A DNA stretch of 64,000 nucleotides from Candidatus Omnitrophota bacterium (GCA_018400015.1 JAGYNB010000001.1:264124-328123); one strand, 5' to 3'. Numbered from the stretch's first letter, positions 14,164 to 46,017 are shown. Numbers and translations: made by a program. The notes: generated from the sequence alone by a model not told the origin.

Positions 14164-14168
14164 AAATA

Positions 14169-22690: not shown

Positions 22691-23851
22691 ATGCTACCAT
22701 TAATCATATTAATTCTTTTTTTAAGGCCGTTTATTTCCGAGTTTATAAGCCTGAGATTTGATAGTTTGTTCAGCCTTATTTTAGTTTTAATGATTTCTAT
22801 TTATCTTATCGTCAGCAAGAAGATCAGGAAGACTAAATACGATAAACTCATTTTCTTTTATTTCCTTACCATTATAATTGCCGGTTTTTTCTCGTCAGAT
22901 TTAGTAAAAAGTATCAGCAATATACATAAATATACAACTTCGATTATGATTTTTTATTTAGTTTTCTTGGAAGAAGAAAGAAGACTTTTTATACCCTTTA
23001 TCATAGTCAGTGGTTTTTTCATAAGTATTTATTCGCTGTTTCATTTATTTTTCGTTCCCGGAATGGTGATGGATTATCTTAATAAACAGGGGATTGTTTA
23101 TCCTTTTGCAGAAAATTTTCTTGCAAGGAGAAGGGCTTTTGTCCCTTTTGTTTCTCCCAACCTTCTTGCAGGATATATAGCTATGGTTTTTTCCATTGCT
23201 TCTGGGTTTGTTATGGAGCGTTTGCGTAGGCAAAACAAATCACCAGTTTTGATTTTCTATGTTCTTATTTTATTGACTTTGTTTTTTGTTCTGTTTGCCA
23301 CAAAATCAATAGGGGCTTGGTTATCGTTATTGGCTTCTTTATCGTGCTATGTTTTATTCAGGAAACGAATAAACGGGAAATCTTTGTTTTATATAGCTCT
23401 AATTACTGTTTTTTTGCTGGTTATTTTGTATCTACGTTTTAAAGAATCGAGTGTTATTACTTTTCCATCTTTTTCTTTGCATCAAAGGATAAATTATCTT
23501 TTGGAGAGTTTTAAGGTTATATCGGCCCATCCTTTTATGGGCGTGGGTTTAGGTAATTTTATGATCAAAGAAACACTTTTTTGCCATAATTCTTTTATTC
23601 AGATATGGGCTGAAGCTGGCATTGCCGGGTTTATTTCATGGTTGATTTTAGTGGCTGTATTTATTAGAGAGTCAATTATTGGTTTGAAAATAAAGAAAGA
23701 CTATTTTTTTGACGGTTTATTTATAGCTGGAATGTGTTTTATTTTCCATAATTTTGCAGATTTTAGTTATTTTATTCCGCAGGTTTCGTTTATTTGGTGG
23801 ATGGTTTTAGGTTTTATTCTTGCCGAGAGCAGGTTAAGTACTAATGAGTAA
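22691..23851 (+). CDS. O-antigen ligase/polymerase-family (Wzy_C) polytopic membrane protein
   Basis: 386 aa, ~10-12 TM; Wzy_C-like HNSFIQIWAEAGIAGF motif in the distal periplasmic loop. Confidence 0.6.
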   Translation: MLPLIILILFLRPFISEFISLRFDSLFSLILVLMISIYLIVSKKIRKTKYDKLIFFYFLTIIIAGFFSSDLVKSISNIHKYTTSIMIFYLVFLEEERRLFIPFIIVSGFFISIYSLFHLFFVPGMVMDYLNKQGIVYPFAENFLARRRAFVPFVSPNLLAGYIAMVFSIASGFVMERLRRQNKSPVLIFYVLILLTLFFVLFATKSIGAWLSLLASLSCYVLFRKRINGKSLFYIALITVFLLVILYLRFKESSVITFPSFSLHQRINYLLESFKVISAHPFMGVGLGNFMIKETLFCHNSFIQIWAEAGIAGFISWLILVAVFIRESIIGLKIKKDYFFDGLFIAGMCFIFHNFADFSYFIPQVSFIWWMVLGFILAESRLSTNE

Positions 23852-25148
23852 AAAAAATATTATTATATTGGGCGCCGGTCTTTGCGGCTTAAGCGTTGCC
23901 TGGCACCTTAAAAAGATGGGTATAGCTGCTTGTGTATATGAAAAAGAAGATAAAGTGGGGGGGCTTTGCAAAAGCGAGAGCATAGGGGATTTTGAGTTTG
24001 ATTATGATGGTCATGTTTTACATTTTAGATATCCCTATGTATTTAATCTTGTTCAGAGGTTGTTGAATAACAATATACTTGAATTTAAAAGGAGTTCATG
24101 GTTTTATTTTCATGGTAAATATTTTCCTTATCCGTTTCAGGCAAATCTGTATGGTTTTCCTTTCCGCATAAGCCGGGAATGTCTTCTTGGGTTCATTGAG
24201 GCGCAGAAGAATAAAAAAACAGCAGATAATAAAAACACAAGTTTCTTAGACTGGATAAATCATACGTTCGGTCCGGGTATTGCCAAATATTTTATGATTC
24301 CTTATAACGATAAATTTTGGACAGTTGCTCCAAAAAGATTGACTTATCATTGGTCAAAGCGCGTTATTCCGGTTCCTTCTTTGAGCCAGATTATTGAAGG
24401 CACATTATCGCAGAGCAAGAATGACTTTGGTTACAATATACAGTTTTGGTATCCTAGATCCGGAGGAATTATGCAGCTGCCTTTAGCTTTTGCAAAAGGC
24501 AATAAAAATATTTTCACAGGTGTTTCGGCAGTTCAGATAGATCTTAAAAAGAAAATAGTTTATCTTTCAAACGGCGAAAAAAATAAATTCGATTATTTGA
24601 TTTCTACGATACCTTTGCCAGAGCTTGGTGGTATAATTAAAGATATGCCTTATTCGATAAAAAGGTCTTTGAATAGGCTAAGATGGAACTCCATTTTTAA
24701 CCTGAATTTGGGTTTTGACGATAAACGAAAAGTTAATCGACATTGGATTTATTTTCCTCAGAAAAATATTAGTTTTTTTAGAGTCGGGTTCTATAGCAGT
24801 TTTTCAGCAGGTTCATGCCCTAAGGAAAAAAAAGCTATTTATACAGAAGTGTCTTATTCGCGTTTAAGGCCACTGCGCCGCAAAGGAATAAAAGACAGAA
24901 TAAAGAGAGATTTAATTAAAACTGGAATAATCGCCTCAAAAAATGATATTGTTGTTGAGTTTGAGAATGATATTAAATACGGTTATCCGATTTACGATAA
25001 GAATTATGCACCGGCTAGATTGGCGATATTGGATTACTTAAAGCAGAATAAAATGTTTTCATGCGGCAGATACGGGTCGTGGGCATATATGTCTATGGAG
25101 GATGTTATCCTTGATGGGTATAGGATTGCAAATTCAATTAAGGGATGA
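23844..25148 (+). CDS. FAD/NAD(P)-binding oxidoreductase, UDP-galactopyranose mutase-like (Glf family)
   Basis: 434 aa; N-terminal Rossmann ILGAGLCGLSVA; GGL...DGHVLHF, YNDKFWTV and C-terminal YGSWAYMSMEDVI resemble UGM/protoporphyrinogen-oxidase-like folds. Confidence 0.45.
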   Translation: MSKKNIIILGAGLCGLSVAWHLKKMGIAACVYEKEDKVGGLCKSESIGDFEFDYDGHVLHFRYPYVFNLVQRLLNNNILEFKRSSWFYFHGKYFPYPFQANLYGFPFRISRECLLGFIEAQKNKKTADNKNTSFLDWINHTFGPGIAKYFMIPYNDKFWTVAPKRLTYHWSKRVIPVPSLSQIIEGTLSQSKNDFGYNIQFWYPRSGGIMQLPLAFAKGNKNIFTGVSAVQIDLKKKIVYLSNGEKNKFDYLISTIPLPELGGIIKDMPYSIKRSLNRLRWNSIFNLNLGFDDKRKVNRHWIYFPQKNISFFRVGFYSSFSAGSCPKEKKAIYTEVSYSRLRPLRRKGIKDRIKRDLIKTGIIASKNDIVVEFENDIKYGYPIYDKNYAPARLAILDYLKQNKMFSCGRYGSWAYMSMEDVILDGYRIANSIKG

Positions 25149-25927
25149 ATATTAAAAAGAGAATAATTAGTAATTTCTATAAAAAAGATATATTGCTGGA
25201 TATGTCTTTCAGGCAGATGCGGTTAAAATATGCCGGAGCCAAATTGGGTTTATGGTGGGCTGTTATTTCTCCTTTTATTCTTGCTTTGAGTATTAATTTT
25301 GTTTTTAGACATGCTTTCAAGATCAATATTGATAATTTCGCTTTTTTTGTACTTTCAGGGATTATCCCCTGGATTTATATTACCAATACCTTATCTGAAT
25401 CAACAAGCGTATTAATTAATGATGCTTCATTGGTAAGACAAGGATCAATTCCTATAGAGTTTTTGCCGTTTTCTACCGCTCTTGCCAATTTATTGATTTT
25501 TCTTATAGGTATGTTGTTTTTATTGCCTTTTTTTATCATAATCAAATATAACATAGTATTTATGTTGTGGTTTTTACCATTTGTTATACTGATGCATTTT
25601 ATGTTTTTGACAGGGTTAGCGTTATTTGTATCATTTATAAATGTTTTTGTCAGAGATTTTTCCCATCTATTGAATAGTATTTTTATGGTTTGGTTTTGGG
25701 TGACTCCAGTATTTTATTCGCTGGAAATGATTCCTTCTTCATATAGATGGGTTTGTTTATTAAACCCCGTGACTTATTACGTTATAATGTACAGGGATAT
25801 TTTGTTTTACGGGCAATTACCAGATTTAAATATTATTCTCGCTGGTTTGTTCATCGCGATGGTATCTTTATTGTCTGGGTATAGCACATTTATCAAAAAT
25901 GAGTTTTCAATTTTAAAACGATTATGA
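25145..25927 (+). CDS. wzm: ABC-2 type polysaccharide exporter permease (Wzm/TagG/KpsM-like)
   Basis: 260 aa, 6 TM; ABC-2 family signature region; translationally coupled to the downstream ATPase. Confidence 0.75.
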   Translation: MNIKKRIISNFYKKDILLDMSFRQMRLKYAGAKLGLWWAVISPFILALSINFVFRHAFKINIDNFAFFVLSGIIPWIYITNTLSESTSVLINDASLVRQGSIPIEFLPFSTALANLLIFLIGMLFLLPFFIIIKYNIVFMLWFLPFVILMHFMFLTGLALFVSFINVFVRDFSHLLNSIFMVWFWVTPVFYSLEMIPSSYRWVCLLNPVTYYVIMYRDILFYGQLPDLNIILAGLFIAMVSLLSGYSTFIKNEFSILKRL

Positions 25928-27984
25928 ATGCGCTAAGTTTTAATAAAGTAAGTGAAAAGTACCGTATTAAGTTTGTTGAAAACGGTATAGTTTCTTGGGA
26001 GGAAATATGGGCCTTAAGAGATATAAGTTTTAATTTGAAAAAGGGAGAGGTGTTAGGTTTAATCGGACATAATGGTGCCGGTAAGACTACGTTACTAAAA
26101 TTGATATCAGGAGCAATTGTTCCTGATGAAGGGGTTATTGATGTTGTTGGCAGGATCTCTGTATTGATGGAGCTGGGTATAGGGTTTAATCCGGAGTTTA
26201 CTGGCAGAGAAAATATTATTTTCAATGCAAAAATATATGGATTTAATGAGGAAAGCTTAGCGGTTAAGATTGATAAGATAATCGAATTCGCGGATTTAGG
26301 CAGATTTATAGACTCGCCAATAAAATATTATTCTCAAGGCATGTATATGCGTTTGGCATTTGCCTTGGCTATATTTGTTGATCCGGACATACTTTTAATC
26401 GATGATATTTTAGCCGTGGGTGACGAAGATTCTCACAGAAAGTGTATAAGTAAAATATTTGAATTGAAAGCATCTGGTAAAACCATAGTTTTGGTAACTC
26501 ACGATATAACTATGGTGGAAATGCTTTGCGATAGAGTGATTCTGTTGGAAAAAGGGAGAAAGATTAAAGAGGGATTACCAAAAGAGGTAACCAGATATTA
26601 CCTTCAGGCATGCCAGGCCCGCATTAAGGCAAAGCAGGAAGAAGAGACCAGGCTTCTTCGCCAGCAGCGTACGATAACAAATGGTGACATAAGCCTCTAT
26701 GCTGATGTCGAAAGCAAGGCCTTAAGAATTTACCATAAGGACAAGGAAATAACCAATGGCAACGGCCTGCATAGTTCCTTTTTGATAAATGATATATGGT
26801 ATGAATTCCAGGCAGATTGGGAAATAGAAAAGATTGATGAAGGCGTCTTGAAGGTGGGTATGCATTTTGATAGTTTTATTCAGAATATAATCTTAACGCT
26901 GAATCAGGGCGTGTTGGAAATAAATATTGAATATAGTGTTCTAGAAAATAATAATTTGGACAGTTATCATATTAAGTTTGAGTTTGCCGATAGTTATAAA
27001 ACTTGGTTTTGTCATGACGACAGAGGGAGTTTTGATGTGCAGGATTATATAGATTATGCAGCTCCGGTACGCTTAAAAGATAATAAAGTGAGTAAAATTG
27101 CTTTTATTCATGGAGAAAAAACTGAGATTCCTTCCCTTTTGATCGAAGTTTTATCGGATTTAGACAAGAGAATAGCTTCTCTTTATCGTAGAAATGATTT
27201 ATCGTGCGAGAGGGTTTGTTTTCAGTCTAGTTTTATTGTTCCCCGGATGAAAGGTTTTTCAGAAAATTATAGCGGTGCGTTTCAAGCAAAAATTAATTTT
27301 AAAGATAAAATAGAAGAATCTGAAATTACTGATAATAAATTGGAATTTATATATCAGCTTTCAAATGGCGATCTCGATTTTATCTTCGATCGTGGTAAGG
27401 GGAAAATAATTTATAGAGGCAATGAATTAACGTCTGGATTGGGATTTTATACCACTGTTCGTTCAAAAGGGATGTGGTTTGATTCTTCGCAAGCGTTTTG
27501 GAAGGTTGAAAAAAAGAGCAAGAACAAGATTGAATGTTTTGGCCAGTGGTTTTATCTTCCTATTTTACAGAGATGGAGTATTTGTGTAGGCAAAAAAGGT
27601 ATTGATTTTGATATAAGGATGGATATTCCTGAGGAATGCATAACAGAGCTAAGGCACTCAGCATTGATGTTAAGTAACAATTATAAAAAATGGTTCGTAA
27701 ACGATAATATTTTCGGCGATTTTTTGGAAGAATATCATGAAGAATACGATACTATTCCTTTTCGTTTTTGGAGTGGCAATACCGCTGTGCTTGCTGCTTT
27801 ATCTGCAAAAAAGAACTTTCCTCAGGTATTTTTTAAAAGCAAGAATTGTCCATTGGCAATAGTGGAAAATAGTGAATCTATTTATTGGGCAAGGAGATTT
27901 CAGTTTCAGTCTAAAACGGATAATAAGGTAAGCTTGGGCAATAAAGGCATATTTTTTGCAGGCAAAATAACGATCAATGATTAG
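25924..27984 (+). CDS. wzt: Polysaccharide ABC exporter ATPase (Wzt/TagH-like) with ~430-aa C-terminal extension carrying two copies of a putative glycan-binding domain
   Basis: 686 aa; Walker A GHNGAGKTT, signature YSQGM, Walker B LLIDD within the first ~250 aa. The C-terminal extension has two related ~120-aa modules: W.EFQADWEIEK...YKTWF and WFDSSQAFWKVEK...WFYLPILQRWSI...YKKWF. Confidence 0.8.
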   Translation: MNALSFNKVSEKYRIKFVENGIVSWEEIWALRDISFNLKKGEVLGLIGHNGAGKTTLLKLISGAIVPDEGVIDVVGRISVLMELGIGFNPEFTGRENIIFNAKIYGFNEESLAVKIDKIIEFADLGRFIDSPIKYYSQGMYMRLAFALAIFVDPDILLIDDILAVGDEDSHRKCISKIFELKASGKTIVLVTHDITMVEMLCDRVILLEKGRKIKEGLPKEVTRYYLQACQARIKAKQEEETRLLRQQRTITNGDISLYADVESKALRIYHKDKEITNGNGLHSSFLINDIWYEFQADWEIEKIDEGVLKVGMHFDSFIQNIILTLNQGVLEINIEYSVLENNNLDSYHIKFEFADSYKTWFCHDDRGSFDVQDYIDYAAPVRLKDNKVSKIAFIHGEKTEIPSLLIEVLSDLDKRIASLYRRNDLSCERVCFQSSFIVPRMKGFSENYSGAFQAKINFKDKIEESEITDNKLEFIYQLSNGDLDFIFDRGKGKIIYRGNELTSGLGFYTTVRSKGMWFDSSQAFWKVEKKSKNKIECFGQWFYLPILQRWSICVGKKGIDFDIRMDIPEECITELRHSALMLSNNYKKWFVNDNIFGDFLEEYHEEYDTIPFRFWSGNTAVLAALSAKKNFPQVFFKSKNCPLAIVENSESIYWARRFQFQSKTDNKVSLGNKGIFFAGKITIND

Positions 27985-30346
27985 GCATATTTTAAAAAGA
28001 ATTAAAGCGCATTTTAAAAAAGGCGGTTTGTTATATGTCGGATTACGTGTTGTTAAATATCTTAAATTTCTAATTATATCTTTGATTATAAAAATAAAGC
28101 GTGATAAAAAAAAGTCAGTTACCTTAAAGGAAACAGTTTTATCATCAGATAATCTTAAGATTGTAGTTTTAAATTCAGGAATAAACTTTTTATGGAAGGA
28201 TGTTCTTTTTACTGTTCATCCTGGTGTGAATTTAGGTTTTAATATATTGGGGTTATGGAATGATTCTGCCAGGGCCGATTGGCATATCGTAGAGAAGGCA
28301 ACTAATTACTTAAAAATAAAAGTTTATTTCTGGGAATTGCCTTTGAACCAAACATGGGAAATTAAGCTTTTAAGTAAAAACAGGGTAAAAATAGATATTT
28401 GGCTTGAGGTTGAGGAATGGTTGCATATTGATGAAATTCGGCTTTTGTGTCTTGCCGAAGGAAAATATAAATGTTGGATTAATAATTTTGAAATAAATAA
28501 TTTCCAGAAATTTGGCAATGCCTGGCGGGATATATGTATGAGTTCAGAGGTTTCTTCTTTGGTGGGCTTGAGGTTTCCTAAAATCAACGATATTCCTTCG
28601 TTTACTATGGAAACAGACGAAAAAGACACCTTTGCCATTATTCAGAATTCTCCCCAGAATATGTCAGCGCATGCAGTTGGTTTTAGAAAGATTATCCCAA
28701 CCGGAAAAAGAGATTATGCTCCCGGCACATATGGACTTTTCTCAGTTTATTTTAATTTTTTTAGTTCTGATCAGCCTCTTGATAATAAAATCGAGCTTTT
28801 AAGAAAAATAGATCTTAAAAAAATGTCAGCCGTTAATAATAGAGCGAGCAGTACTTATAATCAAGGGATTTTGTTGGTTAATCTTCCATGGCAGGAGGAA
28901 GGCCAATTCGGCGTGAGAGCAGGTTCACGCTGGCCACATATAAAAGATTATTACGAAGGCGATTATACTCCTTTTCCTTTTTTTCTGGCTTACTCAGTCG
29001 CATTATTAAGAAAACACGGTTTTAAATCTATGATAATTGATGCTCTGGCAGAGAGACTTAACGAAAACATATTTCTAGAGAAAGTTTCTAGATTGGGTGC
29101 TGATATTTTAGTCGCAGAGGTTTCAACGCCTTCATTTAAAAACGACATTTCGCTTTTGAAGAAAATGTCGGGGAAGGGAATGAAAATTGTAGTTTGCGGT
29201 CCGCATATTGAGATTCATGAAAGAGATTTCTTGAGTAAGCATCCTTTTATAGATTATGTTTTGTTCGGGGAATACGAGTTTTCTTTACTTGATTTGGTTA
29301 CTGCCATATTTGAAAATAAGCCGCTTTGCGATGTCAAAGGTTTAATCTACCGTGAAGGCGACACTATTATTAAAAACCCTCCAAGAGAAGCTTTTGACAT
29401 AAACTTGCTGCCTTGGCCTTCCCGGGAAGATCTACCTATGGAAAAGTATTGGGATTTGCCTGGTAATATCCCTTATCCATCTGTACAGATGGCTGCTTCT
29501 AGAGGCTGTCCTTTTGGCTGTAATTTTTGTCTTTGGCCCCAGGTAATGTATTTGGGTAATCATTACAGGGTAAGAGATGTTAAGGATACAATAGATGAAA
29601 TGGAGTATCTTGTAAGGGAAATGGGGTTTAAGTCTGTTTACTTTGATGACGATACTTTCAATATAGGCAAAACAAGAATGCTGGATTTTTGCAACGAAAT
29701 TAAAAAACGCGGTTTAAATGATATTCCTTGGGCGATTATGGCAAGAGCAGATTTAATGGATGAAGAGATATTGAACAATATGGAATCTGCGGGACTTTGG
29801 GCTGTTAAGTATGGAGTGGAAAGCCCAAACAGTAAGCTCATTAAGACAATAAATAAAGATATGGGTATCGATAAGACAACGAGAAATATAAAGATTACAC
29901 AGGGGTTGGGGATTAAAACTCATCTTACTTTTTGTTTTGGAGCAGATGGTGAAACAAAAGATACGGTTCAAGAAACTATTAATTATGCCTTGAAGCTTAA
30001 TCCGGAATCAGTACAGTTTTCCATTCTTACTCCTTTTCCCGGAACAAAATTGTACGAAAAACTGGACAAGGAAGGAAGAATTTTAACTAAAGATTGGTTT
30101 AAATATGACGGTCATTATCAATGCGTTTTTCGTCATGATAACTTTACCCCTGAGGAGTTGGTTGCTATTAAGAAACGCGCTTACGGTATCTGGCTGGATC
30201 ATACAAGAAGAAGAAGGGGCGTAAAAGGAGACATAGACAGGTTCAATAAATATCTAAGAAAACATGGATTAGCCAAGGCAATTAGCAAGACCTTATCTTA
30301 TTTTGAATTTGTTATGTTTAAAAGAAAAGAGTTTCTGAATGGATAA
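27977..30346 (+). CDS. B12-binding radical SAM protein with N-terminal TM helix and Wzt-CTD-like domain
   Basis: 789 aa; TM LIISLIIKI; residues ~55-190 carry LWNDSARADWHIVEK...FWELPLNQTWEI...YKCWI, homologous to the Wzt C-terminal modules; B12-binding region; ASRGCPFGCNFC rSAM cluster. Confidence 0.75.
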   Translation: MIRHILKRIKAHFKKGGLLYVGLRVVKYLKFLIISLIIKIKRDKKKSVTLKETVLSSDNLKIVVLNSGINFLWKDVLFTVHPGVNLGFNILGLWNDSARADWHIVEKATNYLKIKVYFWELPLNQTWEIKLLSKNRVKIDIWLEVEEWLHIDEIRLLCLAEGKYKCWINNFEINNFQKFGNAWRDICMSSEVSSLVGLRFPKINDIPSFTMETDEKDTFAIIQNSPQNMSAHAVGFRKIIPTGKRDYAPGTYGLFSVYFNFFSSDQPLDNKIELLRKIDLKKMSAVNNRASSTYNQGILLVNLPWQEEGQFGVRAGSRWPHIKDYYEGDYTPFPFFLAYSVALLRKHGFKSMIIDALAERLNENIFLEKVSRLGADILVAEVSTPSFKNDISLLKKMSGKGMKIVVCGPHIEIHERDFLSKHPFIDYVLFGEYEFSLLDLVTAIFENKPLCDVKGLIYREGDTIIKNPPREAFDINLLPWPSREDLPMEKYWDLPGNIPYPSVQMAASRGCPFGCNFCLWPQVMYLGNHYRVRDVKDTIDEMEYLVREMGFKSVYFDDDTFNIGKTRMLDFCNEIKKRGLNDIPWAIMARADLMDEEILNNMESAGLWAVKYGVESPNSKLIKTINKDMGIDKTTRNIKITQGLGIKTHLTFCFGADGETKDTVQETINYALKLNPESVQFSILTPFPGTKLYEKLDKEGRILTKDWFKYDGHYQCVFRHDNFTPEELVAIKKRAYGIWLDHTRRRRGVKGDIDRFNKYLRKHGLAKAISKTLSYFEFVMFKRKEFLNG

Positions 30347-33300
30347 GCTGTTAGTAAAAGGTATTAATAGCGAAAAGCATGCCTTTGCAGGTCCTAAAAT
30401 AGTACAGATTGATCTTACGGGTAAATGTAATAATAGTTGTATAGGCTGCTGGGTGCACTCTCCTTATATAAAAAACCCACCTAGAGACAAGAATGCAGTG
30501 CTTTCATTTGAAAGAATATCGAGATTAATAGATAATTTGGCACAGTTGGGTACGCGTGAGATTTTTTTATCAGGGGCAGGTGAACCTTTTTTGCATCCTG
30601 AAGTTTTCAGGATTATCGAGGCAATAAAAGCAAAAGGTTTAAAACTTAATATAATTACCAATTTTAGTTTGATCAATAGAAGAAATGCAGAGAAGTTGGT
30701 TGATTTGAAAGTAGATATGATTACAGCAAGCATTTGGGGAGGTGATGAGGACACCTATATAAAAACTCACCCAGGTAAATCCGCAAATGATTTTGCGGCA
30801 ATCAGAAACAATATTAAAACACTGTCGCAAATAAAGAATAAAAATAATGTTTTTTTCCCTCATGTTAAGATTTTTAATGTTATTTGCAATTTGAATTGCA
30901 ACAATATACATAGTATGATCGATTTTGCTTTGGAGGCCGAGGCAGAATCTATTGAATTTCAAATCATGGATATCGTCGAAGGCTCTACTGATTTTTTAAG
31001 GTTGTCATCAGATGATATCAATATTATTAAACAGCAATTTTGTACACTTTTTGAACGAAATGATCTGTTTTTTAGAGATATAAATGAATATAATGCAGAA
31101 AATAGCAGATCTCAAGAATTATTTGAATTTTCAGGAAGGTTTATCAAGATACCCGTTGGTTTTCGTTTAGAAGAGAAGATTGAATGTACCGAAGGTAAGA
31201 ATATTTGTTTGCGTTCCTTAATCTGTCCCTCCGGATTTACCAGTTTGCCTTCTGAATCCAATCCGTTAGTCAAAGAGGACTGCAATAAGATTATTTTTAA
31301 GCGCAGCAAAGAGGAGTGTATGAACTGCAGGCATTTTAAAACAGATTGTCCTGTAAATAGAGATTTCGATATTCCCTTTAAGTATCTTCAGGTTCTTGGA
31401 CATTATCCGTTTATGAGAAGAATTAATTCTGCGGATATATATAAAAAAGAATATGAGCGTGATTTTATTGATAAATTACCTTGTTACATCGGATGGATAT
31501 ATTCTCGAGTCATATCTACGGGAGACGTTATTCCATGTTGCAAAGCGATTAATAAACCGTTGGGTAATATCAATAAAGAATATTTCAAAGAGATATGGGA
31601 CTCACAAGATTACCAAGAATTCCGGTTTAATGCCAAAAATCTGTCAAAAGCTGATGGTTATTTTAATGAAATTGATTGTTTTAAATCATGTGATAACGTG
31701 GGAATGAATATTCAGATTATTGATAATTTATCCAAAATTAATCTGGAAAAAGATCATGGTTGTAAGCTCGAAGCTGTTTATAATGGAGCAAAGTTGTATA
31801 AAAAACTGCCTCAAGCAGAGCAACAAATAATAGTAATGGCAAATTCATTCCATAACGGAAATCTTAATAAATACACCGACGAATTCGGAAAAGGCGTAGT
31901 AATCGATGGCGGATTTAAATATGGTTATGCTGAGTATGAGGTAGACTTTACTAATTCTGGGATTTATGAATTATGGTTATGTTATGCCAGCAATGAGAAA
32001 AGAGGGTTAAAGATATATATTGATGGACAGTTAGTTAAGGATAAAGCAGCTGATTATATAACCGGTGGTTGGGATAAAAGTCATTTAATTTGGAGTAAAG
32101 AACTAAAGATTTCTAACATAAAAGGCAAGCATTATATAAAGTTTGCATCGAATAATGTTTTTCCCCATATACATAGTTTTGTTTTTTTATCGAATGTAAA
32201 AAGAGAAGATTCTGATTTGATTGAATGCGGTTGTGAACAGATTTATGATGGAAAATTTCCATTCGGTGTTTTACGTGAAAAAATTAAGCGAAATGGAATA
32301 ATAATTGCATTCCGGTCTTTAGCTAAGTATATCTTGTCAGGAAAGTTTTTGAATAGCTATCTTGATATTTTGGGCATTTTTAATGGCAGTTATGCATTCA
32401 AAGGCCCTTTTCATGTGCAAATTGATCTTACTTATCGGTGTAACAATGATTGTATTGGTTGTTGGTGTAACTCACCGCTTCTTGGAGAAAAACGGATAAC
32501 AAACGAGAAGAAAAACGAAACGTTGCCTTATCCGTTAGTGATTGATTTGTTGGATGAGATTTCAGCAATGGGTGTTAAGGAAATTTATTTTTCAGGCGGA
32601 GGAGAGCCTTTTATGCATCCGAATATATTCGAAATCTTAGAATATGCAAAATCAAAGAAGCTATTATGTTATATTAATACCAATTTTACTCTTTTGGACA
32701 AAGAGAAAATTAACAAACTTATTGAGTTGGGCATAGATCATTTGACTGTGAGTACTTGGGCGGCAACCGCACAGACTTATGCAAAAACGCATCCTAACAA
32801 GAACGAAGATACTTTTAATACTATTCGCGAGAACTTAAAGTTTCTTAATAGTGTTAAAAAAACAAAACCTCATATAAAACTTTATAATGTTATATTTAAT
32901 TATAATTATCATGAGTTAAAAGAGATGATCTTATTTGCAAAGGATACGGGTTGTGAATCGGTAGAGTTTACTGTTCTTGATACGATTCCCGGGAAAACGG
33001 ATAGACTGCTTTTAAATAAGGAGCAGATCAAGGAACTCGAAGAATCTGTGATCCAAATTAAGGCGGGTATAGACAGCAAAGGTTTATATGAGGGAGTGTT
33101 GTTGTTTCGGTTTGAATCGTTTTTAAGAAGGATTTCCTCGCGTGAGGATTTATCTAATGCAACGTACGATAGGAATATTATCGATAAAATTCCCTGTTAT
33201 ATCGGATGGTGTTTTTCACGCATTATGCCAAATGGCGATGTTAATGCATGTTTAAAGGCGCATCGCATACCCAGCGGTAATTTATTTCAGCAGAACTTCA

Positions 33301-34661
33301 GGGAGATTTGGAATGGCGATAAACAGATATTTTTTCGAAAAAAAACTTTAGTGAAAGAGAAGAAGGGAGAGTTTTTTACTCTTATTGGCAATGATCTGGA
33401 CATTAAAGAAGCAGGTTGTTATAAAAGTTGTGATGATATCGGAAGAAATATATATATGCATAATAGAATAATGTCTTTAACCCTTGTTGAGAGATTTTTT
33501 CTTAAGATTTTGTCAAAGATATTCAAAAAACCGCCAGTGTCCAAAGAGAACAAAATTCTTAAAAATAACGATTTGATAAGAAAAGGTATCTTAACGAAAC
33601 GTAAGGCATTTGTCGGGCCAGAACAGGTGGTGGTTGATATTACTAATCGTTGTAATTTAAGATGTGTTGCCTGCTGGTTGTATTCTCCTGTATTAAAGAA
33701 TCCTCCGAAAAGCGATATTTTATCTGCAGAGTTATCTTTCGATCGTTTATCCGGTTTAATTAAAGAGCTTGCGGCTATGGGTACAAAAAGAATAAGATTT
33801 ACCGGAGGAGGAGAGCCTTTTTTGTATTCTCGTATTTTTGATGCTATAGCCTTAGCCAAACAAAGAAAATTGATTTGTTCTGTGACAACAAATTTTACGT
33901 TATTAAATAAGAAAAAGATCGATGAATTGATTAAGCTTGGTATTGATGAACTTACTGTAAGTCTTTGGGCTTCAAACGAGGATAATTACAGGATAATGCA
34001 TCCGGGCTGTGCTCAGGATATGTTTAAAATGATAGACGATAATTTAGATATGCTTATACAAAATAAAAAAAAGAAACCTTTTGTTACTGCGGCCAATGTG
34101 ATATCCAATCTTAACTATCGATATCTTGAGCAGATGTTCGATTTTGCTGTAAAAAAAGGGTTGGATTCGGTCTACTTTACATTGCTTGATCCTTTAGAAG
34201 GTACAGATGAACTACTTTTGGATTCAGGGCAAAAGAAAGATGTTTTAAAACAGTGTGAGAATATAAAAAGAAAAATTAAACTGTTTTCATCAGAAAAAAG
34301 AATTGAATTGCATTATTTTGATGGTTTTATATCGAGGCTTACTCAATCTCAATCAAGAGACGGTAATTATGATAAACAAAGGGTCCAAGGCGTACCTTGT
34401 TATGCAGGATGGTTGTTTGCGAGGATAATGGCGGATGGGTCTGTGTCTCCTTGCTGTCGGGCAGTAAAGAAAACAATGGGCAACATCAATAAAAATTGTT
34501 TTAAGGATATTTGGTTCTCGCGAATATATAATGAGTTTAGATCCAAAGCACTGCTTTTAGATAAAGCCGATATTTATTTTAAAGATATAGGATGTTTTAA
34601 AACATGCGATAATCTAATGCATAATGAACATATGCATAATATTCTAACATATGGAAAGTAA
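30339..34661 (+). CDS. Giant tri-modular radical SAM/SPASM(twitch)-domain protein with internal beta-sandwich (CBM-like) insert
   Basis: 1440 aa; three tandem modules, each with a CxxxCxxC motif (CNNSCIGC, CNNDCIGC, CNLRCVAC) and an SPASM-like tail (PCYIGW/PCYAGW...GDVxPCC/NAC...GN(I/L)...EIW). Residues ~470-625 (nt ~31746-32214) form an extra Trp/Tyr-rich putative carbohydrate-binding insert. Confidence 0.75.
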   Translation: MDKLLVKGINSEKHAFAGPKIVQIDLTGKCNNSCIGCWVHSPYIKNPPRDKNAVLSFERISRLIDNLAQLGTREIFLSGAGEPFLHPEVFRIIEAIKAKGLKLNIITNFSLINRRNAEKLVDLKVDMITASIWGGDEDTYIKTHPGKSANDFAAIRNNIKTLSQIKNKNNVFFPHVKIFNVICNLNCNNIHSMIDFALEAEAESIEFQIMDIVEGSTDFLRLSSDDINIIKQQFCTLFERNDLFFRDINEYNAENSRSQELFEFSGRFIKIPVGFRLEEKIECTEGKNICLRSLICPSGFTSLPSESNPLVKEDCNKIIFKRSKEECMNCRHFKTDCPVNRDFDIPFKYLQVLGHYPFMRRINSADIYKKEYERDFIDKLPCYIGWIYSRVISTGDVIPCCKAINKPLGNINKEYFKEIWDSQDYQEFRFNAKNLSKADGYFNEIDCFKSCDNVGMNIQIIDNLSKINLEKDHGCKLEAVYNGAKLYKKLPQAEQQIIVMANSFHNGNLNKYTDEFGKGVVIDGGFKYGYAEYEVDFTNSGIYELWLCYASNEKRGLKIYIDGQLVKDKAADYITGGWDKSHLIWSKELKISNIKGKHYIKFASNNVFPHIHSFVFLSNVKREDSDLIECGCEQIYDGKFPFGVLREKIKRNGIIIAFRSLAKYILSGKFLNSYLDILGIFNGSYAFKGPFHVQIDLTYRCNNDCIGCWCNSPLLGEKRITNEKKNETLPYPLVIDLLDEISAMGVKEIYFSGGGEPFMHPNIFEILEYAKSKKLLCYINTNFTLLDKEKINKLIELGIDHLTVSTWAATAQTYAKTHPNKNEDTFNTIRENLKFLNSVKKTKPHIKLYNVIFNYNYHELKEMILFAKDTGCESVEFTVLDTIPGKTDRLLLNKEQIKELEESVIQIKAGIDSKGLYEGVLLFRFESFLRRISSREDLSNATYDRNIIDKIPCYIGWCFSRIMPNGDVNACLKAHRIPSGNLFQQNFREIWNGDKQIFFRKKTLVKEKKGEFFTLIGNDLDIKEAGCYKSCDDIGRNIYMHNRIMSLTLVERFFLKILSKIFKKPPVSKENKILKNNDLIRKGILTKRKAFVGPEQVVVDITNRCNLRCVACWLYSPVLKNPPKSDILSAELSFDRLSGLIKELAAMGTKRIRFTGGGEPFLYSRIFDAIALAKQRKLICSVTTNFTLLNKKKIDELIKLGIDELTVSLWASNEDNYRIMHPGCAQDMFKMIDDNLDMLIQNKKKKPFVTAANVISNLNYRYLEQMFDFAVKKGLDSVYFTLLDPLEGTDELLLDSGQKKDVLKQCENIKRKIKLFSSEKRIELHYFDGFISRLTQSQSRDGNYDKQRVQGVPCYAGWLFARIMADGSVSPCCRAVKKTMGNINKNCFKDIWFSRIYNEFRSKALLLDKADIYFKDIGCFKTCDNLMHNEHMHNILTYGK

Positions 34662-36042
34662 TAATTTAATTAGTTATTTGGATGTATTTTTCCAAAAAGA
34701 TTGCTTTGAAAGAATAAATTCAATTATTGATCCGGATAGCCTTCAATTTAAGCCTGCCAAAGAAGTTTACGAAGATTTAAGATATTATGTGTCTAGATTT
34801 AAGACTAACAAATTCGAATTTAACAGTTATTGCAATTTAAATACGGGTTTTCTATCAAAATTGTGCGATTTGATTATTAACGCTGATTTCTGTATCAAGT
34901 GGTCGAGCCCCGCAGTTTTCAAAAAGGATTTTAACGAAGATAATATTCTACAATTAAAGAAATCAGGATGTTATAGACTTGTTTTTGATTTGTTCTCTGC
35001 ATCGGATAATTTTCTTGAAAGAATGAAAATACCTTTTGACAGCCGAGTGGTTATAAATATATTGCAAAAGTGTAAAGAGCATGGGATTGATGTTGGAATT
35101 AGGTTGTTGTTTTATCATCCGCAGTCAGATATAACTGATTTTGATAACACATTGGAGTTTATTCGTTTAAATTCAGAATATATCAAGGAGATATCCTGCG
35201 TTGACTTATGTATTAGCTCTTTTTTGCGACAGCCTAGATGCAGGAATTTTTATTCCTGCAAAGGCGATAGTAATAATAATTATTCTTCTTTGGCTAAGCG
35301 CATCATGAAACCTTACCGCATAATCAAAGATTTAGGTATTCCGGCGGTTGTTTTTTCTCCATCTGAACAGCAGTTTGATTTAATCAATAGTTTCTTTACT
35401 CGCCACGTAATTTGTAACAGAAATTTATCTTTAGTTTTTGATGGCGGTTGTTGCCATATTTTCTGGAAGAATATGCGCTTAACTAAAGGTTTCGGAATAT
35501 ATACATCTATTTTTGCTTTAGGTAATTGGCAAGATTCTCGGCAGGTCGATTGGAAATTTGTCTGTAAAGACAATTCTAGCATAGTTGTTGTTGGCAATTG
35601 GAAATTCTTGCCTATAGTACAGCAATGGCGTATAGAGATGTTTGCTGAAAATAAGATTTCTTTTTGTGTAACTATGGAAATCAAGGATGGTATCATTATA
35701 GATGGTGAACAGCAGTTTAATGTCATGTTAGACTCAGTATATAAAAGCTGGTTTTTCTCTAAAGATCTTTCCAATATTTTTCCAGAATTTTTTAACAAAG
35801 AGTGGGTTAATTTATTTGAGAAAACAATTGAACACGCTGATTGTATTGGCGTTGAGGCAAATTCTGAAAAATTCCCTGATTTGAGATTGCGCTGCGATTT
35901 TTTCCATGGAAGAAAGCTGGCCGTATTGAACACGCCATTAGAGTTTAGTTCCAGAAAGCTTAAGGCATATTTTTTCGACATGAATAAAAAACCACCAGGG
36001 GAAATAGTTTATTTTAAAGGAGAGATTTTAATTGGCAAATAA
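34651..36042 (+). CDS. Degenerate radical-SAM-like (no CxxxCxxC) protein fused to Wzt-CTD-like domain
   Basis: 463 aa; residues ~90-190 align to the distal half of the B12-rSAM barrel of ORF 36032 (LKKSGCYRLVFDLFSASDNFLERM... vs KAGCTRLCYGIESASDDVLKRM...) but the Cys triad is absent. Residues ~255-380 carry NWQDSRQVDWKFV...WKFLPIVQQWRI...YKSWF. Confidence 0.5.
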   Translation: MESNNLISYLDVFFQKDCFERINSIIDPDSLQFKPAKEVYEDLRYYVSRFKTNKFEFNSYCNLNTGFLSKLCDLIINADFCIKWSSPAVFKKDFNEDNILQLKKSGCYRLVFDLFSASDNFLERMKIPFDSRVVINILQKCKEHGIDVGIRLLFYHPQSDITDFDNTLEFIRLNSEYIKEISCVDLCISSFLRQPRCRNFYSCKGDSNNNYSSLAKRIMKPYRIIKDLGIPAVVFSPSEQQFDLINSFFTRHVICNRNLSLVFDGGCCHIFWKNMRLTKGFGIYTSIFALGNWQDSRQVDWKFVCKDNSSIVVVGNWKFLPIVQQWRIEMFAENKISFCVTMEIKDGIIIDGEQQFNVMLDSVYKSWFFSKDLSNIFPEFFNKEWVNLFEKTIEHADCIGVEANSEKFPDLRLRCDFFHGRKLAVLNTPLEFSSRKLKAYFFDMNKKPPGEIVYFKGEILIGK

Positions 36043-40676: not shown

Positions 40677-41840
40677 ATGCGTATTTTGATGGTTCATCCC
40701 CATGATATTCATTCATCAGTTGAACCTTGGACCAGAAGAGTCAAAAGTTTAGCGGAAGAGTTCGCGAAAAGCGGGCATGAAGTAAGATTGGTTTATTTTC
40801 CTTTAAAGAAAAGAGATCCAACTAACAGTAGTAACAATCTATATGAAGAGTTTGTGTTTAATCGTAATTGTTCTTTCACTAATTTTATTAAAAATACAGT
40901 TAAGTTAATAAAATTGGCTGAGTGGTCTGATGTTATGCATTTTCAAAAATGTCATCATTACGCCTCAATCCCTACAGTCATAGCAGCTTATATAAAAAAG
41001 AAGCCGTTACATTACGATTGGGATGATTGGGAAGAAATGATTTGGTATGAATCTTGCGGGAGAGGATTACATTCTTTGTTTATAGGATTTTCTTTTAGGA
41101 TTTTGGAAAGGTTTTTGCCTGTATTTGCTGATAGTGTATCTGTAGCAAGCCATCATTTAAGAACGCTTGCTTTGAAATATGGAGTAAATGAAGATAGGAT
41201 TTGTCTTGCTCCGGTAGGGGTAGATTCTAAAGAGTTTAATCCCTCTGTTGCATCGGGAAATATTAAAGATAACTATAATATTAAAGGAAATTTAGTGCTC
41301 TATGTTGGTCAATTACATGGTGCACAGTATATTGAGTTACTTATAAAAGCGGCAAAATCTGTACTGGAGCAAAGAAAAGATACCACTTTTATGATAGTGG
41401 GTGAAGGAGTTATGGAGAGAGATTTAAGGATCCTGACCAGGGATTTGGGCATAGATGACAAGGTAATATTTACAGGATCAGTTTCACATGGCCAAATTCC
41501 GGCGTATATAAACGCAGCGGATGTGTGTGTTGCTCCTTTTAGGGATACTTTGGTTACTCGTTGTAAAAGCCCTTTGAAGATAGTGGAATATTGTTCATGC
41601 GCCAAGGCGATAGTTGCAAGCAATGTAGGGGAAGTGAGAAGGATGCTGGGGGGAGTTGCCGTATTGGTTGAGCCGGGTAATTTCCAAGCTTTATCAGAAG
41701 GAATCTTGCGACTTTTGAATGAGAAGCAGTTAAGAGCTAATCTGGGAAAATTTGCACGTCTTCGCGTAGAGAAGCATTATAATTGGGCAAATACAGCAGG
41801 GGCAATATTTTCTTTATACCAAAGAATCTGCATAAAATAA
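40677..41840 (+). CDS. Glycosyltransferase, family 4 (GT-B)
   Basis: 387 aa; C-terminal EX7E-type motif region LKIVEYCSCAKAIVASNVGEV. Confidence 0.75.
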   Translation: MRILMVHPHDIHSSVEPWTRRVKSLAEEFAKSGHEVRLVYFPLKKRDPTNSSNNLYEEFVFNRNCSFTNFIKNTVKLIKLAEWSDVMHFQKCHHYASIPTVIAAYIKKKPLHYDWDDWEEMIWYESCGRGLHSLFIGFSFRILERFLPVFADSVSVASHHLRTLALKYGVNEDRICLAPVGVDSKEFNPSVASGNIKDNYNIKGNLVLYVGQLHGAQYIELLIKAAKSVLEQRKDTTFMIVGEGVMERDLRILTRDLGIDDKVIFTGSVSHGQIPAYINAADVCVAPFRDTLVTRCKSPLKIVEYCSCAKAIVASNVGEVRRMLGGVAVLVEPGNFQALSEGILRLLNEKQLRANLGKFARLRVEKHYNWANTAGAIFSLYQRICIK

Positions 41841-41850
41841 AATATTCATT

Positions 41851-42957
41851 GTGAAAATCTTATTTATAACAAGAGAAGGATATAAAATGGCGGGAGCCAG
41901 AATTCGTTGTTATAATTTTTCAAGAAATCTTATTGCCCGCGGCATTGATGCGCAGGTTGTGTCTTTTAAGGATGGTTTTGGCGCGTTTGACGGTGCAGAA
42001 GAATCAAAAATGACATTGAATGACAAAATAAGAGCAAATTTAAAGGTTTTAAATTATATAAGGCAGCAGAAGGACATAATCTTATTGATTCAGCGGTTTA
42101 ATTATCATTCTTTTGCACCTTTCTTGATGCATATTTTTGCAAAAACGAAAACTATTTTTGATCTTGATGATTGGGAAATGGATGAAAACCCAAGATATCA
42201 TTTTGGTTTTTATCCATCATCAAAAGCCCATTTTTTTTCAAAGGTTATCGCAAAAAGAAGTAATTTTTGTATAGGGGCCAGTAGGTTTTTGCAGGATTTT
42301 TTAAGCCTTTCAAACAAAAAAAGTTATTATCTTCCATCAGGCGTAGACACGGAAAAGTTTTATCCTGTTTATGATAATTTGAATAACCGGGAGTTTGTTT
42401 TTGCTTGGATAGGGACATTGAATAGAATGGAGTATATAGAGAATTTAGAGTCGCTTTTTCGTTGTTTTCAACAGGTAAGAAGAGTTTATCCATTTGTTTA
42501 TCTTGATATTATCGGTTCTGGTATATATGAGGTTGAATTAAAGGAAATAGTAAGGCTTATTGGAGATTCCCATATAAGGTTAAAAGGGTGGATTGATCCC
42601 GATAAGGTTAATAGTTATTTGGCATCGGTTAATGTTGCTGTTATGCCAATGGTGAGATCAAATAATTTTAATTTTTCCAAAAGCCCTGTTAAGCTTTTTG
42701 AGTATATGTCAACAGGAAAACCCGTTGTTGCAAGCAGTATAGGAGAAGCAAGCAAAATAATCCAAGACGGATCAAACGGTTTTTTGGCAAAAACAGAGAA
42801 AGAATTTACAGAAAAGATGCTTATTTTGGTCAATGACCCTGAGTTGTGTATAAAGCTGGGCAAAGAAGCTGTCAGAACAATTGAACAAAATTATTCATTA
42901 AATATCTTGGGTGATAAGTTGTATAACATGATTTTAGAGAATATACAATGTTCTTGA
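41851..42957 (+). CDS. Glycosyltransferase, family 4 (GT-B)
   Basis: 368 aa; KLFEYMSTGKPVVASSIGEA GT4 motif. Confidence 0.7.
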   Translation: MKILFITREGYKMAGARIRCYNFSRNLIARGIDAQVVSFKDGFGAFDGAEESKMTLNDKIRANLKVLNYIRQQKDIILLIQRFNYHSFAPFLMHIFAKTKTIFDLDDWEMDENPRYHFGFYPSSKAHFFSKVIAKRSNFCIGASRFLQDFLSLSNKKSYYLPSGVDTEKFYPVYDNLNNREFVFAWIGTLNRMEYIENLESLFRCFQQVRRVYPFVYLDIIGSGIYEVELKEIVRLIGDSHIRLKGWIDPDKVNSYLASVNVAVMPMVRSNNFNFSKSPVKLFEYMSTGKPVVASSIGEASKIIQDGSNGFLAKTEKEFTEKMLILVNDPELCIKLGKEAVRTIEQNYSLNILGDKLYNMILENIQCS

Positions 42958-43805
42958 GCATAGTTATTTTAACATTTAACAGCGGAGATTTTATAAAAAG
43001 ATGCCTTGATTCTTTGTTCTCTAATGTCTTAGAAGATACAGAAGTTATAGTTGTGGATAATGCTTCGACTGACAAGACAAAGGAGATTCTTAAATTATAT
43101 TCGTCTAAGTTACGATTTATCGCGAACGAAAGCAATCTTGGTTCCTGCGCAGGCAGAAATATTGCTATTGATAATTCTTCTGGTGATTGGATATTATTTT
43201 TGGACTGTGATATAGTCTTGCATAAAGATTTTATTGAGCAGATTATTCTTAAAATTAAATCTGTTTCAGGCCGGGTTGGTGCGGTTCAGCCGTTGATTCT
43301 TAAATCTGATTCAGAAACTATTTATTCTTGTGGAATTCGTCTTACTTTTCTTAGAAGGTTTTTTGATATTGGCAGGGATAAATCCGACAGAAGAAAATTT
43401 GCCTGTGAGAGAAGTATTTTTGGAGCATGTTCCGCAGCATCCGTTTATAGACGTAATATGATCGAGCAGATAAAAGATCAGTATGGTTATTTTGATGAGC
43501 GTTTTTTCTTTTTAGTAGAAGATGTAGATTTGTCGTGGCGCGCCAGAAAAAAAGGCTGGGAGACATTATTTTTTCCTGGTGCAAAATGTATCCATGCCGG
43601 CAACAGCTCATATTTTTCAAAACACTTAAGGCAGTATCTCAGTTTCCGCAATAGATACTATATGATATTAAAGAATGAAAATAAATATTTCCTTCTGCTA
43701 AAATCATTATTTTATATTTTTTACGATGTCCCCAGATTGGTTTTTTTATTATTTACTAATCCGTATATTTATCAGCGAAAGCTGAAATTATCCCAGCAGT
43801 ATTAA
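42948..43805 (+). CDS. Glycosyltransferase, family 2 (GT-A)
   Basis: 285 aa; SIVILTFNSG...VVDNASTD...LDCD DxD-type GT2 motifs. Confidence 0.75.
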   Translation: MFLSIVILTFNSGDFIKRCLDSLFSNVLEDTEVIVVDNASTDKTKEILKLYSSKLRFIANESNLGSCAGRNIAIDNSSGDWILFLDCDIVLHKDFIEQIILKIKSVSGRVGAVQPLILKSDSETIYSCGIRLTFLRRFFDIGRDKSDRRKFACERSIFGACSAASVYRRNMIEQIKDQYGYFDERFFFLVEDVDLSWRARKKGWETLFFPGAKCIHAGNSSYFSKHLRQYLSFRNRYYMILKNENKYFLLLKSLFYIFYDVPRLVFLLFTNPYIYQRKLKLSQQY

Positions 43806-43871
43806 CTTTCTTACCAGGTATGAGTTTATTCAGGGATAGCAGACTGATTATTTTTTTGCAAGTTAGAATAG

Positions 43872-44834: not shown

Positions 44835-44858
44835 TTATATAATTTTATATTTAAATAC

Positions 44859-45989: not shown

Positions 45990-46017
45990 ATAACCTATTG
46001 TGTTAGAATAAATTACG

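Follow-up and report, generated by a model that had tools for sequence, protein, structure and literature searches.

In ABC-transporter-dependent pathways, the binding domain of Wzt verifies that a polysaccharide is complete before it is exported. How the enzymes that tailor or terminate the polymer reach the same end of the chain is less clear. This question is raised by a 64,000-nucleotide stretch of DNA from Candidatus Omnitrophota bacterium (GCA_018400015.1 JAGYNB010000001.1:264124-328123; the whole stretch is called the window), where the exporter ATPase Wzt shares a domain with two radical-SAM-type proteins encoded beside it. A first-pass annotation had described this domain as Wzt C-terminal-type. 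The analysis presented here leads elsewhere: to a new, all-beta, mutarotase-like module of approximately 220 amino acids (aa) and of glycan-binding type, which would stand in place of the carbohydrate-binding domain (CBD) of Wzt and would also recruit tailoring enzymes. We judge this reading to be slightly better than even.

To locate the copies, the window was translated in all six frames and searched with a hidden Markov model (HMM) whose 76 training sequences were homologues from other genomes only. The HMM marked exactly four module segments: two in tandem on Wzt (M1 and M2), one at the N-terminus of open reading frame (ORF) 27977 and one at the C-terminus of ORF 34651 (E-values in Table 1). 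The best match after these had an E-value of 0.15, and no fifth copy was found. In BLASTP comparisons, M2 aligns with the C-terminus of ORF 34651 over 215 aa at 27% identity (E 1.6e-20). Significant alignments also join the N-terminus of ORF 27977 to the C-terminus of ORF 34651 (E 2.9e-13), M1 to M2 (4.8e-8), M2 to the ORF 27977 module (1.5e-7) and M1 to the ORF 27977 module (6e-4). Both methods thus bear out the four homologous segments that had been proposed at these places. The proposed size of approximately 120 aa reflected only the better conserved N-terminal half, as the full module is approximately 215–230 aa long, and "close homologues" was an overstatement for copies that are only 18–28% identical. 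The motif that had been noticed, W.DS..A.W ... LP..Q.W.I ... YK.WF, coincides with near-invariant columns of the family, and a family scan and synteny show that the sharing of the module is conserved across loci and is no local accident. A chance Trp-rich repeat was rejected because the independent HMM gave the four segments E-values between 1e-29 and 1e-65, with the background at 0.15.

The fold of the module was predicted by modelling M2 with AlphaFold from an 80-sequence family alignment. The resulting model is confident, with a predicted local distance difference test score (pLDDT) of 94.3 and a predicted TM-score of 0.91, and it places 18 beta strands over 216 residues. A first model from four sequences was poor (pLDDT 56) and serves as a weak consistency check only; it pointed weakly to the same structural families. 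The best Foldseek match in the PDB had an E-value of 1.9e-6 at probability 1.00, with TM scores of 0.61–0.68 for members of the fold, and the matches as a whole ranged from E 2e-6 to 1e-3 and from TM 0.55 to 0.68. They comprise aldose 1-epimerases, N-terminal domains of GH94 phosphorylases, domains of GH38 mannosidases, the P1 domain of YidC, GH36 and OpgG. The predicted fold is therefore that of the galactose-mutarotase-like supersandwich. The great majority of the structural neighbours are sugar-acting proteins and this fold is typical of carbohydrate-binding domains, which makes glycan recognition plausible. The confident prediction also counts against chance likeness.

Neither Pfam nor NCBIfam has a sequence match to the module family, and a PDB sequence search with the Wzt extension and a family-profile search returned nothing useful. 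For the classical Wzt_C domain in particular, Pfam PF14524 gave no match on the window Wzt at E<=0.1 and none on 80 module family members at E<=1. When 47 Wzt_C regions were compared with the 80-sequence module alignment, hhalign returned a probability of 0.6% over 20 aligned columns. An HMM made from the C-terminal regions of classical Wzt proteins, which recovers 92/92 of those proteins, found nothing at E<=1 in the related loci described below (34 in number); its best E-value was 0.57 on the window and 0.16 on 150 module-bearing proteins. Known Wzt CBDs are dimeric jelly rolls of approximately 150 aa in which the C-terminal strands are exchanged and the cap is bound on a flat sheet (PMC9445017). 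No Wzt CBD entry occurs in the top 50 or top 60 of either list of structural matches. The first-pass annotation had itself named an unrelated fold as grounds for giving up its assignment, and a fold unrelated to the Wzt C-terminal domain is what structure prediction returned. The identification as a Wzt_C-type domain, which found support neither in profiles, nor in profile–profile comparison, nor in the predicted fold, was rejected. As modelled, the module has none of the testable sequence or fold features of Wzt_C, and it lies outside the Pfam families of mutarotase-like fold.

The nucleotide-binding domain (NBD) that precedes the modules is 46–57% identical to the NBDs of classical Wzt proteins of approximately 420 aa that bear PF14524. 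These are its closest full-length relatives besides fragmentary Omnitrophota matches. The position of the module right after the NBD, the PF14524-bearing relatives of that NBD and the absence of PF14524-like sequence together indicate a domain replacement at the CBD position.

The 80-sequence alignment has near-invariant columns at T33, W48, S51, W56, Q79, W81, Y117, W120, F130, P163, N179, R187 and F208 (M2 numbering). A core of aromatic or polar residues is conserved in every class of module, namely W48, W56, Q79, W81, Y117, W120, N179 and R187, and to judge from the alignment this core resembles sugar-binding sites. The full set is present in M2 and in the module of ORF 34651; M1 has degenerated at three positions of the core (W81I, N179R and R187V) and the ORF 27977 module has H at position 187. 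The same alignment bears on a rival explanation, which is that the module is itself catalytic, as a mutarotase- or epimerase-like or other sugar-transforming domain acting on the glycan or on a sugar precursor. The Wzt-terminal ("last") class does conserve the acidic residues D50, E105, E133, D139, E178 and D181, as such an enzyme might. Across the family, however, neither His nor Glu nor Asp reaches conservation in >=70% of copies; the columns that do so hold T, G, W, Q, L, Y, F, P, N and R. This lack of a conserved His or acidic residue argues against mutarotase-type catalysis. In addition, Pfam Aldose_epim matches 0/80 family members, the module has 216 aa against 290–340 aa for mutarotases, and an enzyme domain repeated 2–8 times in tandem on an ATPase would be unusual. 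A catalytic role is very unlikely on this evidence.

The family is large. When 1.84 billion cluster representatives (50% identity) were scanned exhaustively with HMMER, 548 members passed E<=1e-3, of which 179 also passed E<=1e-30. A word-indexed protein search with the four-module alignment had returned no matches, and the HMMER result marks this as a limit of sensitivity, not absence. Partners were counted among the best 150 of the 548, ranked by summed score, so that single-module proteins are under-represented. Wzt proteins account for 87 of the 150, with two (23 proteins), three (38), four (13), five (12) or eight (1) modules in tandem; the eight-module protein, P0022, is 2244 aa long. 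Membrane glycosyltransferases of the GT-C/PMT_2 type with C-terminal modules, confirmed by Pfam, number 8, radical SAM enzymes with B12 and/or SPASM domains number 7, and proteins with the architecture of ORF 34651 number 4. The remainder are mostly fragments. Going by these domain assignments, every partner among the best 150 is either a transporter or an enzyme of a glycan pathway. P0014, P0081, P0098 and P0106 are GT-C/PMT_2 glycosyltransferases with 2–4 C-terminal modules, and GT-C genes without a module lie inside the cassette of some loci (L009 688-2283; L033 17153-18370).

The modules group by position and not by genome. Identity within a class (Wzt-first, Wzt-last, B12-rSAM-N and rSAM-C, where rSAM stands for radical SAM) is 29–41% and between classes approximately 20%, and the nearest neighbour of a module almost always belongs to the same class. 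The nearest relatives of M1, for example, are the penultimate modules of other Wzt proteins, and the ORF 27977 module is 37–41% identical to that of its orthologues and approximately 20% identical to Wzt modules. This class-wise clustering implies that the fusions are old and that the copies may have diverged in specificity. Recent domain shuffling was rejected, because the classes are paralogues of long standing, each tied to its position. In the "last" Wzt class all core residues are retained (26/26 cases), and the "mid" Wzt modules have often lost W120, N179 or R187.

Of the two radical-SAM-type proteins, ORF 27977 is the intact one by sequence. Pfam Radical_SAM (PF04055) matches with E 2.5e-16 and 60.7 bits, and the B12-binding family (PF02310) with 32.4 bits at a cutoff of 32.1. 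With the B12 domain, the barrel and the CxxxCxxC motif all present, it is by sequence a class B (B12-binding) radical SAM enzyme. The closest NCBIfam models are HpnJ (226 bits) and BchE (176 bits), both under cutoff. Sugars are the substrates of some class B radical SAM enzymes, such as HpnJ, GenK and AprD4, the latter two being aminoglycoside enzymes. Full-length orthologues of ORF 27977 number more than 120, at 43–54% identity, all of the organism-named ones from Omnitrophota, and no Pfam domain is on record for their N-terminal 290 residues. The basic leader that precedes the module reaches a maximum Kyte-Doolittle value of 0.5–1.7 (19-aa window), below that of a typical transmembrane helix, and may be a membrane-interface or docking helix. 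Its motif recurs in about 18 orthologues (loci L001-L033). One orthologue, P0284 (1236 aa), has precomputed Pfam matches to PF14528 and PF14890, which we take to be intein/LAGLIDADG-type families and which would suggest an intein within this radical SAM enzyme.

ORF 34651 is different in kind. Pfam Radical_SAM matches it only at profile positions 83–166, with 24.8 bits (cutoff 29.5). It lacks a B12 domain, and no CxxxCxxC motif occurs in it or in five homologues of the same architecture. Its alignment with proteins that carry a B12-binding radical SAM enzyme followed by a module (in L024, for example, a protein of 734 aa) covers their second half. This alignment begins exactly at the CxxxCxxC of the intact proteins, of which ORF 34651 keeps only the first Cys. 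The five homologues are approximately 470 aa long (P0120, P0123, P0145, P0078 and one in L017, which lies at the same operon position). P0078 has two modules, and most proteins of this type have a CX5-6C pair before the module. The sequence therefore argues for a conserved, catalytically dead radical SAM remnant with a fully conserved module. The candidate identification of ORF 34651 as a radical SAM enzyme was rejected, since it has no CxxxCxxC, no B12 domain and only half a barrel. Accordingly, the first-pass claim of a domain common to Wzt and two radical-SAM-type proteins stands as regards the sharing and falls as regards ORF 34651 as an intact enzyme.

A further domain of interest lies in the triple fusion encoded by ORF 30339, which does not carry the mutarotase-like module. 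An insert of approximately 190 aa separates its first and second units, and is kept in L005, L006, L010, L013 and L020. Its profile (A4) matches the polysaccharide-binding protein 8j3y (E 1.9e-4) and the CBM35 modules 2w47/2w1w (E 7e-3); Pfam has no match on the insert. It is by these profile matches a second, unrelated module of carbohydrate-binding type (CBM6/35-like) on a radical SAM enzyme of the operon. This insert counts against a cluster for ribosomally synthesised and post-translationally modified peptides (RiPPs), in which the module would bind a peptide. Radical SAM enzymes with SPASM and B12 domains are frequent in RiPP pathways, and the NCBIfam model "RiPP maturation radical SAM C-methyltransferase" scores 110–151 bits, under cutoff, on ORFs 36032 and 38022. 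Here, however, the cassette also encodes Wzm and Wzt, five glycosyltransferases, a WecA-like initiator and a ligase-like protein. Taken together with chance or compositional likeness (a Trp-rich repeat or an annotation artefact), the RiPP explanation is so improbable as to be close to dismissal.

The arrangement of the window recurs elsewhere. Related loci were sought by scanning one genome per species, starting from a 12-sequence alignment of "last"-type modules; the peptide patterns of the scan were narrow and bias it towards close relatives. There are 34 such loci, nearly all labelled Candidatus Omnitrophota, which suggests that the cassette is restricted to this phylum. Errors of binning or taxonomy may account for labels such as Planctomycetia, Mariniplasma and Patescibacteria that a few loci bear; a Wzt fragment with at least six modules (L003 3-4376) comes from a metagenome-assembled genome labelled Mariniplasma. 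The usual order begins with a GT4 glycosyltransferase, a WecA-like protein, an FAD oxidoreductase (directly 5' of wzm in most related loci), Wzm and a Wzt with 2–6 modules. It continues with the fusion of module and B12-binding radical SAM enzyme, three SPASM radical SAM units, a further B12-binding radical SAM enzyme, GT4 and GT2. The gene after wzt is visible in 30 loci and encodes the fusion of module and B12-binding enzyme in 22 of them. In one locus (L015) the module is a separate ORF abutting the B12-binding enzyme, and in three (L023, L024 and L029) there are two modules on a SPASM radical SAM protein in addition to a B12-binding enzyme with a C-terminal module. The module-bearing genes end at the contig edge in two (L025 and L028), and in another two (L009 and L030) the radical SAM genes after wzt lack a module.

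In the window, a Wzm/Wzt polysaccharide ABC exporter lies inside a glycan biosynthesis cluster (Table 1). Several genes resemble named NCBIfam models and remain under their cutoffs: Wzm the galactan Wzm/RfbD model (E 1.3e-14), the initiating transferase the WecA model (E 2e-25), and Wzt the TagH/Wzt models (155–183 bits, under equivalog cutoffs). The wzt start overlaps the 3' end of wzm by 4 nucleotides (nt). Overlaps of 4–11 nt join neighbouring genes between 23844 and 38002, which is consistent with co-expression.

Table 1. Features of the glycan cluster, with positions counted from the first nucleotide of the window.
Feature	Position	Strand	Basis
Glycan cluster, all genes in one direction	22691-47010	+	Pfam, NCBIfam
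Wzy_C/O-antigen-ligase-like membrane protein, then FAD oxidoreductase (PRK07208-like)	22691..25148	+	Pfam, NCBIfam, synteny
Wzm, ABC-2 permease of the exporter	25145..25927	+	Pfam ABC2_membrane E 1.2e-16
Wzt, 686 aa	25924-27984	+	NBD plus modules M1 and M2
Wzt NBD, aa 1-250	25924..26673	+	Pfam ABC_tran E 1.8e-22; NCBIfam TagH/Wzt-type matches
Wzt module M1, aa ~251-470, "penultimate" type	26674..27333	+	Independent HMM i-E 4.7e-29
Wzt module M2, aa 471-686, "last" type; sequence used for modelling	27334..27981	+	Independent HMM 3.9e-65
Basic amphipathic leader of ORF 27977, aa 1-40	27977..28096	+	Conserved motif KF.KHLK.GGL.YA..RG.KYF.FL
Module at ORF 27977 N-terminus, aa ~41-275, "B12-rSAM-N" class	28097..28801	+	Independent HMM i-E 2.6e-38
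B12-binding and radical SAM catalytic part of ORF 27977 (protein 789 aa)	28907..30346	+	Pfam; CxxxCxxC at aa 511
Triple radical SAM/SPASM fusion, without the mutarotase-like module	30339..34661	+	Pfam Radical_SAM x3, SPASM x3
CBM6/35-like insert in triple fusion ORF 30339, aa ~470-660	31746-32318 (about)	+	Profile matches
N-terminal half of ORF 34651 (463 aa), remnant of a B12-rSAM barrel, aa 1-235	34651..35355	+	Partial Pfam Radical_SAM
Module at ORF 34651 C-terminus, aa ~238-463	35362..36039	+	Independent HMM i-E 3.1e-58; BLASTP to M2
B12-rSAM, without module	36032-38002	+	Pfam; no module match
SPASM-rSAM and B12-rSAM fusion, without module	38022-40571	+	Pfam; no module match
GT4, GT4, GT2, GT2, GT4, WecA/MraY-family initiating transferase	40677..47010	+	Pfam

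Outside the cluster, two NUBPL/MinD-type P-loop ATPases with 4Fe-4S ferredoxin inserts and then a small radical SAM (activase-like) gene lie at 12452-14960, and SufBD genes with an ABC ATPase that is SufC-like by position lie at 49140-50946. The cluster, which has seven radical SAM domains, is thus bordered on both sides by iron–sulfur assembly genes. Nearly all long ORFs between 1 and 55000 are on the plus strand, where GC skew is steadily positive (0.15–0.3 per 2-kb bin); the skew drops beyond about 56 kb, where the first minus-strand genes begin.

What might the module do? It is a putative glycan-binding module on account of its fold, its position after the NBD, its glycan-only partners, its aromatic and polar core, the synteny and the CBM6/35-like insert nearby. 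From the observed homology of the copies, their predicted fold, their distinctness from Wzt_C, and the size, partners and synteny of the family, we infer that the ligand would be a glycan, the same molecule for exporter and enzymes, and that binding would gate export. In the proposed mechanism, modules on radical SAM enzymes would hold the polymer at the active site for tailoring. The commonest of these fusions is that with the B12-dependent enzyme encoded directly after wzt. Modules on Wzt would capture the finished polymer and pass it to the Wzm channel, with tandem copies giving avidity for a repeating chain. Exporter and enzymes would thereby be held on the same lipid-linked polymer. The idea of a glycan-recognition module that targets exporter and enzymes to one polymer is plausible because the fold is of carbohydrate-binding type and occupies the usual position of a CBD. 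It does not imply that all copies bind the same glycan terminus, as the first-pass annotation had supposed, since they are ancient paralogues approximately 20% identical between classes. With 2–8 tandem copies on each Wzt, multivalent binding along the chain is suggested at least as strongly. A more specific version is possible, and is advanced here tentatively: the modules may form a shared "address" system, in which position-specific paralogues couple radical SAM tailoring, possibly capping, of a lipid-linked polysaccharide to Wzm/Wzt export.

Several findings weigh against glycan binding as the role of every copy. The strong structural matches include two that act in protein contexts, the P1 domain of YidC and PnsB2, a subunit of NDH, so the fold is not always carbohydrate-binding. 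ORF 34651 would be incapable of radical chemistry, so enzyme targeting does not explain its module. The loss of core residues in "mid" Wzt modules and in M1 fits spacers as well as binders, and classes that share only approximately 20% identity need not recognise the same epitope. The matches from protein contexts, the dead ORF 34651 and the lost core residues would also suit the main rival, which is that the modules are protein–protein docking or scaffold units. In this view, the paralogous modules of Wzt and of the radical SAM proteins would bind one another, or else the Wzt NBD, and so build a membrane-associated complex of enzymes and exporter, with the number of tandem copies acting as a spacer or ruler. 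YidC P1 (3bs6/3blc) and PnsB2 (9grx) would be its precedents, sharing the fold in non-carbohydrate roles, and ORF 34651, with its fully conserved module on a dead enzyme, would be adaptor-like. The strict maintenance of position-specific paralogue classes and the dimerisation of classical Wzt CBDs (PMC9445017) also speak for docking. Against it stand the structural neighbours, which are mostly sugar-acting, and the conserved Trp, Tyr, Gln, Asn and Arg, which are typical of sugar sites. The module also occurs on GT-C glycosyltransferases, whose soluble domains are usually periplasmic; if so here, docking to the cytoplasmic Wzt would not be possible. We consider the docking explanation unlikely, if by no means negligible.

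Under the glycan-binding reading, the CBD position would be filled in this cassette by a structurally different solution, a predicted supersandwich in 2–8 tandem copies. The same domain family occurs on enzymes encoded beside the exporter, and those enzymes are radical SAM proteins. The family, large but missing from Pfam and NCBIfam, is a marker of a surface-glycan cassette that is conserved in the uncultured phylum Omnitrophota. Should the "address" idea hold, the module would be a new carbohydrate-binding module (CBM) family, and the cassette a natural case of an exporter checkpoint whose reader and whose writer enzymes carry homologous reading domains. To our knowledge, these would then be the first known radical SAM enzymes targeted to a polymeric glycan via appended binding modules. 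No report of radical SAM action on polysaccharides was found in the literature searched. Searches for Wzt with mutarotase, radical SAM with O-antigen and Omnitrophota with radical SAM returned no description of this domain or of this cassette, the 2019 Glycobiology survey of Wzt CBMs (Mann, Kimber, Whitfield) not being covered. New here, apparently, would be a domain family that serves as a CBD-type checkpoint of the exporter, its tandem layout and its sharing with radical SAM enzymes.

The closest known counterparts are the Wzt_C domains of E. coli O9a, R. terrigena/K. pneumoniae O12 and A. aeolicus. Like these, the window module is fused after a Wzt-type NBD and encoded next to Wzm, and its NBD belongs to a clade whose other members bear Wzt_C. 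Wzt_C binds the cap at the non-reducing terminus and export requires it; recognition of the polymer before export is, by analogy, the expected role of the window module too. The window module differs in having no sequence or profile similarity to Wzt_C, and in its predicted supersandwich of about 18 strands and approximately 220 aa, whereas Wzt_C is a jelly roll of approximately 150 aa that forms strand-swapped dimers. In addition, modules of the window type occur 2–8 in tandem and not singly, and they occur also on enzymes.

By predicted fold, the module matches the mutarotase-like domains, which include aldose 1-epimerases, the accessory domains of GH38, GH94, GH97, GH2 (LacZ domain 5) and GH15, polysaccharide lyases and OpgG. 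It is only 5–13% identical to them and has no Pfam match. Compared with the mutarotase enzymes it is approximately 70–120 residues shorter, lacks the conserved catalytic His and Glu, and occurs in tandem on an ABC ATPase as well as on radical SAM enzymes, a setting for which the literature searched gave no precedent. The periplasmic P1 domain of YidC and PnsB2 have no established sugar ligand and no sequence similarity to the module; they provide the precedent for a scaffold. For the enzymes, the catalytic part of ORF 27977 is nearest to the HpnJ and BchE models, and it shares the B12 domain and CxxxCxxC with HpnJ-, GenK- and AprD4-type enzymes. It scores far below the equivalog cutoffs of HpnJ and BchE, however, and we know of no carbohydrate-binding-type module on, or coupling to Wzm/Wzt of, HpnJ, GenK or AprD4.

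CBMs have not been identified on terminator enzymes except in one predicted, Ig-like case, the terminator ORF6 of K. pneumoniae O7 (PMC11231755, 2024). The two cases are alike in that an enzyme that tailors or terminates the glycan, in a pathway dependent on an ABC transporter, carries a putative CBM. In O7 ORF6 the predicted fold is Ig-like and is not common to the exporter, whereas here one module family is found on the exporter and on radical SAM proteins alike.

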